Notes: generated by a model not told the origin, from the letters alone. A DNA stretch of 64,000 bases from a virus (IMGVR_UViG_3300028735_000004:1-64000), one strand, 5' to 3'; numbered from the stretch's first letter, positions 3,093-58,173 are shown. Numbers and translations are program-made.

Positions 3093-3347
3093 TCACATCA
3101 AATTCAATAATCTTTCCACCGATTCTTTATATGGCTGGAAACATTCATACTGGCAATACAGTTCAAATTGTGTTTTCATACCTATCATTGACTCTATACT
3201 TTGCATTTCTAAATATAATTTCTTTGCTATCTTCTTCTTATTATATTTTGGCGCCAAGAATGTAATTGTGTGTTTTAATGTCTCTTCAAAATAATTTTTT
3301 TTGCTGAAGAATATTGAATTCATACTCTTCCCCGTCCTCATTATCAA
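3093..3347 (-). CDS. Small hypothetical protein, C-tail family (possibly 5'-truncated)
   Basis: Ends ESVERLLNLM. Confidence 0.45.
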   Translation of the reverse strand: MIMRTGKSMNSIFFSKKNYFEETLKHTITFLAPKYNKKKIAKKLYLEMQSIESMIGMKTQFELYCQYECFQPYKESVERLLNLM

Positions 3348-4218
3348 TTAACTTTCGATATTGAGCTTTCATATCGCCTTCAATAGTTTGCTTATACTCA
3401 CATCAACACCAAATACTTCTCCACCGCAGTTAGATACGGCTTAATAATTGATTTAGTTCTGCTGCAATTGAAATTCCGCCGGCTCTCTTACCATTTGAAT
3501 AAAAATGATAATATTTTGAACGATATCCTTTTCCGACTTATTTCTTGAGATATATGCTTTTACCACACCCTCCAACAAATCTAACATATCAGCATTTGAC
3601 CATTTCCAATGCACACTATCATATTCAAATGTATGTTAAAACTCATCGTCATATATTTTTATTTTATAAGAATGCGATGAAATTTGGTATATAATTAGTT
3701 ATCGCAGTGTATTGTTTCGTCGATTTCAATATTTAAATTATGGAACATTTTATAACTTTTATCTTAAATTAATTAGTTTCTGCATTTCTTCCGCAATTGT
3801 TTGATATTTACGAATTCTTTTAAACAGCTGAAATTGTTCTTCAAATTTATTAGCGAATAAGAAGATAATGAATTTTTAAACTCCATATATTTTATCATAT
3901 TTTTGGCGATGGCTTTGTTGGAAAGATTATGTTGTTGGGCGGCGATTTACTTCTTCGTGATGTTCTTCAAAGGTTATTTCCCACATCATCAAATCGTCTT
4001 CGTAAATTGCCGAAAGATAATAAAAATCATATGTTGCGTTTTTTTCCAATTGATACCCAATCTCCATTTGAAAGCGTATAATCTGTTCGTGTTATTCCTT
4101 CTATTTGCTTTATATAATAAGAAGCCGGATAATTGGTGCATTTTATTCTGTGGCAATTCAATCTCGAAGCGTTCAATATAGTATCGCAAAGCAAATATAT
4201 TCTGTCATTGTAAGCATT

Positions 4219-4605
4219 TCATAATAAATTCTTCATTTTAATAACATAACAATCTAAACCGTCAAGAGAAAAGTTTTGTAATGTGGTTTTTTGAAAATAT
4301 TTGGTTATTAAAGATAATGCTGCTTCATCTATATAATATTTTTCCTGCTCATCGTGTATTACTTTAACGAAAAAAGTATCTACCAAAAAAGATGTAATGA
4401 TTATTTTAATTGCCGGGGAAGTGCTTAAGGTAATATCTATATAAAAATTTCTGTAAAAAGTATAAGATTTGAAACAACAACTTGTGTCAGAACATATATA
4501 GTTATGATAATTAAGTATTGATTCAGCTTTGATTTCGTGTAGTTTTTGACCACACAAACAGCAATAATCAATAATTAATTGTTCAAGAAGATTTTTTATT
4601 TCCAC
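4219..4605 (-). CDS. CxxC small protein, C-tail family
   Basis: CCLC motif; ends IKMKNLL. Confidence 0.7.
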   Translation of the reverse strand: MEIKNLLEQLIIDYCCLCGQKLHEIKAESILNYHNYICSDTSCCFKSYTFYRNFYIDITLSTSPAIKIIITSFLVDTFFVKVIHDEQEKYYIDEAALSLITKYFQKTTLQNFSLDGLDCYVIKMKNLL

Positions 4606-4662
4606 TCTCTAATATATAAATTTGTTCCATCTACATTTGAATTTTGTGTATAATATGGTCTT

Positions 4663-4947
4663 TTAAAATCTTTTAGAATTTTTTCGTTTAAATTCTGGAA
4701 TTAACTTTTCAATTTCTTCAACTGTCATATATTCCAATATAAGATATGATTGTAAATATATCATTAAATTATTTACTACATTTAAATTTCTTTCCGAATA
4801 GCATTTAATAATTTGTTTGATTTCTTCTTCCAAATAATTTTCAGAATTAAACTTTTTAAGGCCAACATCAAACACTTCGGATTTAAAATCTTCATCAACA
4901 ATATAAAATCCATTTTCTGCAGGATCAAATTTTATGTATAAAAACAT
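4663..4947 (-). CDS. CYSxRNLNV-family small protein
   Basis: IIKCYSERNLNVVNNL matches IINCYSSRNLNVAKNL of 34476..34799. Confidence 0.7.
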   Translation of the reverse strand: MFLYIKFDPAENGFYIVDEDFKSEVFDVGLKKFNSENYLEEEIKQIIKCYSERNLNVVNNLMIYLQSYLILEYMTVEEIEKLIPEFKRKNSKRF

Positions 4948-5222
4948 TATATTAATACCTTATATTTTGTAAGATTTTTTCCATAGTGAATATTTTGCTC
5001 TAAAGTTGAAATATAAAATCTTGCCGCCTCTGGAAAAGGTGTTGTATTATTTGATAAATGATTTAAACAATAAATATAAAATTCAGTATATAAAGATTTA
5101 TTATTTTTATCATTTATTATAATGTCTTTTACACTTACATTTACATTATCTTCAACGCTCCACATAATATAAGAAAGAGCTGTGATAAATCCATACTTTA
5201 ATGCTACATCAAAATTACTCAT
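4947..5222 (-). CDS. Small hypothetical protein, C-tail family
   Basis: Ends TKYKVLI; coupled to its neighbours. Confidence 0.7.
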   Translation of the reverse strand: MSNFDVALKYGFITALSYIMWSVEDNVNVSVKDIIINDKNNKSLYTEFYIYCLNHLSNNTTPFPEAARFYISTLEQNIHYGKNLTKYKVLI

Positions 5223-5575
5223 AGTAAAGCCTTAAACTTTTCAAATTTAGAAATACAATATTGAATTCTTTGTTCTGATAATTGCTCTTTTAGATCTACC
5301 ATCTGATAAACTGGATTAAGATCGAATGGTTCTCGGTGATAAACAAAAAACGCTCCTGTGGTAAAAATATACATATATATTGAATCGACCATAGACATTG
5401 ATATAATTGTATAATTATCTCCTGATAAGTAATAATCTCTATTGCAGCATTTGGTTTTATTATCTATCCACTTAGAAAGTAAAGCTCCGGTGCTATAATC
5501 TATTGATAATGTTTCATTGCATACAAAACATTTTGGTTTAGATTTAAATGAGTTTTTAAAATTCAAAAATTTCAT
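5219..5575 (-). CDS. CxxC small protein, C-tail family
   Basis: CFVC; ends KFEKFKALL; ATGA overlap. Confidence 0.75.
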   Translation of the reverse strand: MKFLNFKNSFKSKPKCFVCNETLSIDYSTGALLSKWIDNKTKCCNRDYYLSGDNYTIISMSMVDSIYMYIFTTGAFFVYHREPFDLNPVYQMVDLKEQLSEQRIQYCISKFEKFKALL

Positions 5576-5898
5576 ATTAATATTTTAAACTTTTTAATCT
5601 TATCGAATAAATGTATCACTTCTTTTAGGCAAGGTCTTTTATCAAAAACCTCAGAAAATAAAAAAATAGATTGATTATTATGCGATGTATATGCATAAAC
5701 TACAAAATTATTATTCTTAACTATATCTTTAAATAATTCTTCCGTAAAGAAATATGCTAATTTATCACTAAAATAATCTCTTTCTTTTGTTAAATAATAA
5801 TCGTGATGACTATATAAATTGCAATCCGAACAATATGCTATATACATTGCTTCAATTGGTTTTTGACATACCAAACATTTGATAAACATTTTACCCAA
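5572..5898 (-). CDS. Zinc-ribbon small protein, C-tail family
   Basis: CLVC...CSDC; ends KIKKFKILI. Confidence 0.75.
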   Translation of the reverse strand: MGKMFIKCLVCQKPIEAMYIAYCSDCNLYSHHDYYLTKERDYFSDKLAYFFTEELFKDIVKNNNFVVYAYTSHNNQSIFLFSEVFDKRPCLKEVIHLFDKIKKFKILI

Positions 5899-56742: not shown

Positions 56743-56791
56743 AAATCCCTACTTCATAAAATATATTTATAATATTATTATGAAAATATTT

Positions 56792-57421
56792 TTAAAGTTT
56801 AATTTTTTGTTTTATGATGCTCATTGCTGTATCAATTGCTTTTACACAATGAGATCTTGATAGATTTAATTTTTTGCAAATCTTATTAATGGACATTGGT
56901 TTGTCGCCATCTATTCCAAAAGCATAATTTAATATTGTTTTTTGATCTGCTGATAAAAATTTCATTGCTTCTTGAATTGCTTTTTGCACTTGAGCTTGTT
57001 CTAAATTTTTATCTGGACAAAATCTATTTTCAATAATAGTTGGCAAGATGCTTTCCTTATGGGGAGTATTTTCTTTTGCAAATTTTAAAGGAAATCTAAT
57101 AGTTGTATGTAAATTAGCGCTTCTTGCAATTCTTGTTTCAATATATTTATGTCCCCACCAGAAAAATGAACCTTTTGATGGATCATAATTTTCCATAGCC
57201 TTAATTAAAGCTTCATACCCCTCTTGATTTAAATCCTCATAATTCGGAAAATTTTTATATCTTCCGGTGCGCATTGTAATTAAATATTTAAATTTTTCTA
57301 CACATAAACTATGGTGTTTTTTATATTTTTTAATAATATTTTTATCATTTGTTTGTTTAACTTCATTTCTTAAGTGTATCAATTCATTAATTAAATTATT
57401 TGCTTCTTTTTCTGTTAACAT
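56792..57421 (-). CDS. Phage sigma70-family RNA polymerase sigma factor
   Basis: Region 2 DLNQEGYEALIKAMENYDPSKG; region 4 LSADQKTILNYAFG...HTH. Confidence 0.85.
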   Translation of the reverse strand: MLTEKEANNLINELIHLRNEVKQTNDKNIIKKYKKHHSLCVEKFKYLITMRTGRYKNFPNYEDLNQEGYEALIKAMENYDPSKGSFFWWGHKYIETRIARSANLHTTIRFPLKFAKENTPHKESILPTIIENRFCPDKNLEQAQVQKAIQEAMKFLSADQKTILNYAFGIDGDKPMSINKICKKLNLSRSHCVKAIDTAMSIIKQKIKL

Positions 57422-57525
57422 ACATAAACCTCTTAATTTATTGCAAAAATAAAAAATAATAAATATATTATAAGTATAATATTAACTTGCTGCTTACTGG
57501 TATAAATTATACTTTAATATTACTA

Positions 57526-57660
57526 TTAATTTACATCTTCTTCTAACATCTCTATAATTGATTCGAGAGAAGAATGAATGATTTCAATATCTTTAATTGA
57601 TAATAAAAATCGTAAAATTTTTATTATTTTAATTAATTTAGCGTCATCTATATTTGACAT
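57526..57660 (-). CDS. Small hypothetical protein (44 aa, not in the ORF track)
   Basis: Manual translation MSNIDDAKLIKII...LEEDVN; abuts the upstream stop. Confidence 0.5.
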   Translation of the reverse strand: MSNIDDAKLIKIIKILRFLLSIKDIEIIHSSLESIIEMLEEDVN

Positions 57661-57855
57661 TTACTTAGAATATTTATCTTTAGCCCAACATCCGCCTATT
57701 AAGATAAAATTAGATTTAGATATCAATCTTTTTGGGACTGATTTTACATCTTTTTCTAAGCAATGGGGGCACTGTTCTAATGGTGGATCTTTTATTGATT
57801 GTTGTACTTCAAATTCTGTGTTGCAAGTCTCACAAACATAATCATAATATGGCAT
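57661..57855 (-). CDS. FmdB-family zinc-ribbon protein
   Basis: MPYYDYVCETC...CPHC...RLIS...F...G.GW pattern. Confidence 0.85.
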   Translation of the reverse strand: MPYYDYVCETCNTEFEVQQSIKDPPLEQCPHCLEKDVKSVPKRLISKSNFILIGGCWAKDKYSK

Positions 57856-57864
57856 ATGTCAACC

Positions 57865-58173
57865 TCATAGTAAATTCAAATATTTAGATATTATTTCTTT
57901 TCCGTCATAAACACTTAATACTTTAACAAAATTAGTTTCAGATATATTTTTTTGATATTTAATTATACAAAAATTATCAGCGATATGAGTTGTTTTGTTT
58001 AATTCATTTAATAATGAATTTTTTAATTTAGAATAAAAAATATCTTTATCGCCACTTTCTCCGTGCTTTAAACATAAAAGATTGTTTAATTCTTTATTTT
58101 TATCATAAGATTTATTAAACAAAAACTTATCAACAATTGAATAATAAATATTATTGTTTAATTTGACTTTCAT
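57865..58173 (-). CDS. Hypothetical protein, C-tail family
   Basis: Ends ISKYLNLL. Confidence 0.65.
   Translation of the reverse strand: MKVKLNNNIYYSIVDKFLFNKSYDKNKELNNLLCLKHGESGDKDIFYSKLKNSLLNELNKTTHIADNFCIIKYQKNISETNFVKVLSVYDGKEIISKYLNLL

Follow-up and report, generated by a model that had tools for sequence, protein, structure and literature searches.

A C-terminal tail held in exact register on two predicted folds of small phage proteins

Closest described systems

The T-even internal proteins IPI, IPII, IPIII and Alt share a capsid-targeting sequence (PMC3012670), and in Bacillus phage G a zinc-ribbon expansion of about 35 copies has been described (Iyer et al. 2021, PMC7824862), 37 copies being recovered in the present analysis. 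These two are the closest known cases to the genes considered here, which lie in a 64,000-nucleotide stretch of viral DNA (IMGVR_UViG_3300028735_000004:1-64000), referred to in the following, at its full length, as the window. In it a C-terminal tail with the consensus K-h-x-K-[YLF]-x-x-L-h-COOH closes 23 intact small genes and three broken copies. Nineteen of the carriers sit within one 16-kb run (the array), and carriers are found scattered among core genes as well. A shared C-terminal tail on about 25 small proteins had been proposed from the DNA of the window alone (the sequence-only reading), and it is indeed present.

For phage proteins that are diverse and share only a terminal address peptide, the T-even internal proteins provide the clearest precedent. 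The likeness is that of otherwise unrelated small proteins with one short terminal peptide that addresses, or in the window would address, one machine, and of loci that are hypervariable between strains. It should be noted, however, that the T4 tag is N-terminal, has about 10 residues, is removed by the prohead protease and belongs to a handful of genes, whereas the tag described here forms a helix at the C-terminus and is carried by about 25 genes, and that a link to the capsid is seen only in the T4 system.

In phage G, likewise a jumbo phage, small paralogues that diverge fast stand in tandem arrays, each with a CxxC...C.C zinc ribbon at its N-terminus, a short beta region and, towards the C-terminus, a helix that is strongly conserved. 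Its helix motif, YWKENDRYLxKIL, carries variable extensions of 1-8 residues, whereas in the window the end is fixed, and it stays in one recognisable family, whereas the tail of the window is found also on another predicted fold and on singletons. A profile designated A1 found nothing in phage G, and the alignment by hhalign of the zinc-ribbon family of the window (family A) with the family of phage G gp32 (YP_009015343.1) comprised 10 columns at the CxxC knuckle, with a probability of 23%.

Enrichment of the tail and its constraint at the protein level

The gene ends in the window were tabulated mechanically (n = 91 genes). The strict motif K..K[YFL]..[LI][LIV] ends 7 of the 91 and is found at 0 of 18,443 internal positions, and the core K[YFL]..[LI][LIV] ends 11 of the 91, as against 0.088 expected from the internal rate. 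For comparison, 626 ends of decoy open reading frames (ORFs) were taken from the same DNA, matched in composition and stop-codon context; the core motif closes 0/626 of them (Fisher p = 8e-11) and the loose motif 5/626, as compared with 22/91 genes (Fisher p = 8e-17). The enrichment over internal positions and over composition-matched ends is thus borne out, and the result that would have refuted the sequence-only reading, a motif no commoner at C-termini than expected from composition, is not seen. With a leave-one-out position-specific scoring matrix of the last 9 residues, 15 of the 24 carriers outscore every internal window and 19 of the 24 fall in the top 0.1%.

Counted back from the chain end, the conserved positions are E-14, L-12, K-9, h-8, K-6 (in 20/24 carriers), [Y/L/F]-5, L-2 (in 22/24, otherwise F) and h-1. 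The chain stops directly after position -1 in 24/24 carriers, without extensions. Five members, the genes at 3093, 10401, 13324, 17805 and 30075, have weak tails.

The constraint acts on the protein rather than on the DNA, as had been suspected from the varied codons of the tail. The codons for Leu(-2) are TTA (16), TTG (2), CTC (2), CTT (1) and CTA (1), which is the background Leu usage; those for Lys(-6) are AAA (14) and AAG (6), i.e., 6/20 AAG as compared with 12% AAG in the background. The nucleotide information in the tail is confined to codon positions 1 and 2, and a comparison of the carrier 3' ends revealed no conservation downstream of the stop codon. The repeated 3' ends could also be explained by a signal at the DNA or RNA level or by an artefact of AT-rich composition, and many carriers do overlap the next start via ATGA or TAATG, the array being the most AT-rich part of a strongly AT-rich window (GC content 0.24-0.26 over 4-20 kb versus 0.27-0.37 elsewhere). 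This explanation is, however, at odds with the lack of the core motif at decoy ORF ends, with the distribution of information over the codon positions, with synonymous codons at background frequencies and with the unconserved sequence after the stop. In addition, the tail is found on genes that are not coupled to a downstream gene (7392, 34476, 48260, 57865), and a scan of the array gave no more promoter-like or terminator-like sites than expected by chance. The chance left to a DNA-level signal or artefact is therefore minute, and for practical purposes it is already refuted. In particular, a promoter, a ribosome-binding site and a recombination signal were each rejected because of the synonymous variation, the absence of post-stop conservation and the uncoupled carriers.

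The tail is not confined to one family. The bodies of family A are on average about 20% identical and their last nine residues 32%, positions -18 to -10 being 11.5% and random 9-mers 7% identical. Between carriers outside family A and those of family A the identity of the last nine residues is likewise 32%. When the last 18 residues were removed, profile-profile comparison with hhalign showed no similarity among family A, a second family (family B) and the singletons. AlphaFold2 (AF2) predicts different folds for the two families. From the paralogue alignment of family A (7392) it gave six strands and a helix at residues 104-119 with a mean predicted local distance difference test score (pLDDT) of 63, the helix block being the most confident part. 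The model of family B (pLDDT 89, predicted template modelling score (pTM) 0.81) is compact, with three strands followed by four helices, the last of which is the tail (residues 93-106 in 34476). Foldseek comparison of both models with PDB, BFVD and AFDB clusters found nothing at E <= 0.001.

These models modify what had been proposed on two points. First, the conserved unit had been taken to be a nine-residue motif; this describes what the families share, but within the zinc-ribbon family the conservation spans a 16-20 residue amphipathic helix. Second, the sequence-only reading had put forward a variable head plus a constant, free C-terminal helix. A separable, selected C-terminal unit on two predicted folds is found, but the helix is not predicted to be free: AF2 makes the tail one of the most confident segments, and in family B it belongs to a compact fold. 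The tail could accordingly be a structural or oligomerisation helix by descent from one ancestral small protein, the zinc ribbon having been gained or lost, with no external partner; the C-terminal helix would then be the most conserved part because it packs against the sheet or bundle or mediates homo- or heterodimerisation. The confident helix inside compact models is what such a helix would look like, as are the heptad-like hydrophobic positions -15, -12, -8, -5 and -2/-1 and the hydrophobic moment of the last 14 residues of the carriers (0.39 versus 0.23 for internal segments). The proteins of the phage G expansion, which are clearly homologous, are built in the same way and have a conserved helix at the C-terminus, and two carriers of a distant relative of the phage (see below) are weakly similar to each other in body. 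On the other hand, the same last nine residues stand in the same register on two different predicted folds, specific residues are kept beyond mere hydrophobicity (K-6 and L-2, see above), and the chain end is fixed in all carriers despite bodies of 78-197 residues with an identity below 20%, whereas the phage G helix tolerates extensions. We consider the structural explanation possible, at clearly less than an even chance.

An amphipathic helix at the end of a chain could also be a MinD-type membrane anchor, which would have to be free of the folded domain, and AF2 predicts the tail of the window with high confidence as part of the fold. Such an anchor, or a tag for loading into the prohead and ejection with the DNA, would make the tail a compartment address. 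In favour of this, the T-even internal proteins, which are diverse and defence-countering, share only their capsid-targeting sequence (PMC3012670), the tail is amphipathic, and its carriers are also scattered among core genes. The T4 tag is, however, N-terminal and cleaved, the array resembles an early region rather than a head module, and the helix is short and Lys-rich, yet predicted to be packed, so that an address tag appears very unlikely.

Carriers, strain variants and genome context

The 17 members of family A are paralogues and are all encoded on the minus strand, from 4219 to 18952. At the N-terminus they have a CxxC, which is followed after 15-35 residues by a second Cys pair, and then come a beta-rich middle and the terminal helix; a CxxC in the first 40 residues together with a second Cys pair is present in 16-17 carriers. 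Beginning at the low-coordinate end, the members are 4219-4605 (tail ...VIKMKNLL), 5219-5575 (KFEKFKALL), which is ATGA-coupled to the singleton 4947-5222, 5572-5898 (KIKKFKILI), 7392-7757 (KFKKLSILV), which was used for the AF2 model, and 7751-8014 (KVDKLRVLC). There follow 10401-10928 with 175 residues and a weak tail (...FNKLVLL), 10925-11296 (KILKLMVLV), 11293-11607 (KLQKYKSLI), 11612-11949, in which the annotated ORF 11635-11949 ends early and KITKLKVIL-stop lies one frame off, 11954-12295 (...YIKYKLLQ), 12292-12636 (KNKRLLNLL), 12667-13047 (...FNKYILLL) and 13324-13671 with a weak tail (...YKKYSIFF). The four long zinc-ribbon members are 14424-14996 (190 residues, KIKKYIILI), 14993-15520 (175 residues, KIIKLAPLQ), 17805-18398 (197 residues, weak tail ...IRNVSILG) and 18398-18952 (184 residues, KVFKRKFLL).

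The family A profile retrieved only the window's own ten proteins from 1.84 billion representatives. A tblastn search with 7392 against phages gave no match, scans of IMG/VR with 7392, 15999 and 8018 gave no relatives, and word-indexed searches with 14424, 48260 and a carrier of the distant relative returned only the query itself. Ten carriers were compared with Pfam and PHROGs, none with a match, and the ESM Atlas had no usable match for 7392.

Family B consists of 34476, 30075, 4663 and two broken tandem copies at 29456-30070, which have relatives only among themselves. The gene 34476-34799 (plus strand, tail EIEKYLSLI) lies between those for thymidylate synthase and dihydrofolate reductase (DHFR). 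The two broken copies at 29456-30070 (plus strand), one with a frameshift and the other with a frameshift and an in-frame stop, have retained their tails, KIQKYINLL-stop and EIQKYLNII-stop; the first of these had been listed among the examples of the sequence-only reading, and although the tail is really encoded, it stems from a frameshifted pseudogene copy. Beside this decayed pair is the intact third copy 30075-30392 (plus strand), with a weaker tail (...LDKYFNFL). The member 4663-4947 (minus strand) ends in KRKNSKRF and has lost the tail.

Five carriers, 3093, 4947, 5891, 48260 and 57865, are singletons without detectable relatives, all on the minus strand. Two of them, 4947-5222 (91 residues, ...LTKYKVLI) and 5891-6127 (78 residues, KANKLKILG), have no zinc ribbon. 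The singleton 48260-48697 (145 residues, KFEKLMILS) is downstream of an M24 peptidase gene, 57865-58173 (102 residues, ...ISKYLNLL) lies between the DnaB module and the gene for a sigma factor, and 3093-3347 (84 residues, ...VERLLNLM) is a marginal carrier.

Near-identical DNA is present in other public assemblies, namely in a 243,008-bp ENA contig and in Logan and JGI contigs, and the comparison with these is instructive for the only zinc-ribbon member without a tail, 11635-11949. The intact KITKLKVIL-stop is one frame off at 11612-11641, and in a contig from a freshwater strain one additional base, inserted at 11642, joins the ORF to the tail, giving ...EYLPKITKLKVIL. The early stop of 11635-11949 comes after a run of five A (11638-11642), with the intact tail in the -1 frame; this is either a recent one-base deletion or a site at which -1 slippage ahead of the stop could still yield some tailed protein. 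In other assemblies frameshifting indels of one base or 2 bp are found in 7392 (7558-7559, 2 bp; this deletion breaks the gene in strain L020), 5572 (5797), 5891 (5960) and 3093 (3303), whereas the larger indels in a 96-98% identical strain (18, 21 and 3 nt) are in frame. The small indels in carriers could be strain-specific gene loss or assembly errors at low coverage; taken together, the indels point to real genes that are subject to birth and death.

The source is an uncultured phage of about 243 kb, the carrier 14424-14996 being found on a 243,941-bp contig. The sequencing runs containing its DNA are labelled as microbial mat, hot spring and freshwater metagenomes, no RNA data set being listed among them. 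The best match of its DnaB among isolated phages is Bacillus phage G with 26% identity, so that no isolated phage is close. One relative was found, the 444-kb metagenome contig Ga0210043_1000003 with a DnaB identity of 47%, which was scanned as a 139-kb IMG/VR fragment (G001, 32% completeness). Two small proteins of this fragment end in ...KKLKAFL and ...SKLKAFL. Although one of these carriers is syntenic with 48260-48697, downstream of the M24 peptidase, it has no similarity to it in the body, and the two are, as already mentioned, weakly similar to each other.

Two other genes inside the array, both on the minus strand, are candidate partners of the tail. One (6264-7367) encodes a protein of 367 residues with a HELRH sequence (HExxH), without a match in Pfam; it has an Atlas feature score of 0.95 to phage-only clusters and a weak structural likeness to M48/U49/SprT peptidases. 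The other (8018-9244) is an atypical protein kinase-like gene with DLHxGN and an RFFD end. A decayed kinase-like duplicate at 9386-10281 is split into three ORFs, and in other strains one-base insertions near 9422/9429 and 10280/10283 alter its frames.

The phage functions encoded in the window include two helicases, one DnaB-like and one UvsW-like, and a DnaC-like loader. The window encodes, moreover, thymidylate synthase, DHFR and dUTPase, as well as two RNase T-like exonucleases, a sigma-70-like factor, an M24 peptidase and fibre-like proteins. A MoxR/VWA-metallopeptidase pair is not among its genes. Inteins with homing-endonuclease domains split GMP reductase (31370-33583), PhoH/PIN (50376-52898) and the large subunit of ribonucleotide reductase (53278-56742). 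At 21365-23758 (minus strand), 2.4 kb from the array, there is a 797-residue protein with a TIG domain and Kelch repeats, for which the best Pfam model is of the KLHDC2 type. It is probably part of the surface or of a fibre, but Kelch propellers are capable of reading the ends of peptides.

A stretch with 45-51% GC inside this phage of 25% GC occupies positions 1-3000 of the window and 12000-17000 of the sister assembly L021. It contains genes for four tRNAs (Arg-tct, Leu-caa twice, Glu-ttc) and lacks convincing ORFs, and other structured RNAs may be present. The sister assemblies extend about 17 kb beyond the start of the window, with the GC-rich tRNA region, SpoU and RlaP, and in these 17 kb no clear additional tails were found. 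About 10 kb beyond the start, in assembly L024, an ORF of 83 residues (16191-16442) ends in ...DKIKEFL, and an RlaP-like protein (16446-16868) ends in ...LKRINLL, both with a loose resemblance to the tail.

The tail as a possible docking element

The small accessory genes of the window form a lineage-specific, fast-evolving set, and they are probably early genes because of their position and their ATGA/TAATG coupling. We infer that the tail, i.e., the last turns of an amphipathic helix together with the free carboxylate, is a common docking element through which proteins with different bodies would engage one shared partner, a proposal to which we give about an even chance. Docking is favoured because the same peptide is found in the same register on two predicted folds, and because the conservation is residue-specific and the chain end fixed. 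It is further supported by the zinc-ribbon member without a tail, which keeps a hidden tail that is rejoined in a related strain, by the broken copies of family B, which keep theirs, and by the recurrence of the tail in the distant relative, there also at a syntenic position on a body without similarity. The net charges of the carriers range from -7 to +7, which argues against a single, uniform DNA-binding role.

Several points weigh against a docking element. The analysis linked the tail to no partner, protease or export machine, and none of the known consensus sequences for ClpX, the clamp or PIP is matched by the tail among the 24 carriers. AF2 puts it, in both models, in a confident and apparently packed helix rather than in a flexible peptide, and the hydrophobic pattern of family A, which spans 16-20 residues and is heptad-like, is that of a helix covering a sheet or forming a dimer. 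Most carriers are plainly paralogues, so that the counts are not independent and common descent accounts for much of the sharing; as fast-evolving, AT-rich ORFans, the others could be homologous beyond detection. It should be borne in mind that docking and the structural explanation given above are not mutually exclusive.

If there is a partner, the preferred guess, itself rather unlikely, is that C-termini of the basic-then-non-polar kind are read by an AAA+ protease or unfoldase, in which case early proteins would have in the tail a common timer of their instability. The partner could also be the kinase-like or the HExxH protein of the array, the capsid or the membrane. The sequence-only reading had likewise thought of an adaptor or degron; of this the selected, protein-level element stands, whereas neither a partner nor a ClpX consensus match was found for it. 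As a specific form of docking, the tail could be a shared degron read by an AAA+ protease of host or phage (ClpXP, ClpAP, Lon or FtsH), by which early accessory proteins would all be short-lived or be cleared together. C-terminal ssrA-like and MuA-like signals for ClpX are established (Flynn et al. 2003, in the summary given in PMC8138137). Like the tail, they are short, stand at the very end of the chain and finish in non-polar residues, with basic residues before these in the MuA type, and in 13/24 carriers the last three residues are fully non-polar, with lysines upstream. Moreover, jumbo phages are known to encode ClpP, ClpS, ClpA or ClpX (PMC7824862). The tail differs, however, in that an LAA-like end ([LA]AA) is present in 0/24 carriers and the MuA-like rule holds for 2/24, and degrons are usually unstructured, whereas the tail is predicted to be helical and well ordered. 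The 139-kb fragment of the relative yielded no ClpP, which is uninformative because the fragment is 32% complete. On balance a degron is rather unlikely. The sliding-clamp motifs QL[SD]LF and QLxLxL and the PIP box are each present in 0/24 carriers; clamp, PIP and ssrA motifs were thus rejected as the identity of the tail, none of their consensus sequences being matched among the 24 carriers.

Poxvirus ankyrin/PRANC (F-box-like) families combine variable N-terminal parts with one constant module at the C-terminus, which would dock on a single host machine. It was with these that the sequence-only reading had compared the small proteins of the window, and the layout of a variable head and a constant tail in a viral multigene family is indeed the same. 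Homology is not apparent, as no F-box, PRANC or ankyrin domains were found among the ten carriers compared with Pfam and PHROGs, and in contrast to the poxvirus module the constant part has 9-20 residues and is not a domain, and the host is bacterial. In the most far-reaching version of docking, which we regard as decidedly unlikely, the proteins would be a phage adaptor library: about 25 diversifying heads would each bind a different host or defence protein, and the constant helix would deliver the target to a single effector; candidates for this effector are an AAA+ protease, from phage or host, the kinase-like enzyme and the HExxH protein of the array. If true, such a library would be the counterpart, in a bacterial virus, of the F-box/PRANC families of substrate receptors.

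Most genes of large phages are small ORFans without a functional handle. A tail that is under selection, locked in position and present on two predicted folds is such a handle, since with one peptide as bait a common pathway could be assigned to about 25 genes at once. Should the partner be a protease, a kinase or the capsid, the array would be a natural, diversifying targeting library and as such informative on host takeover and counter-defence.

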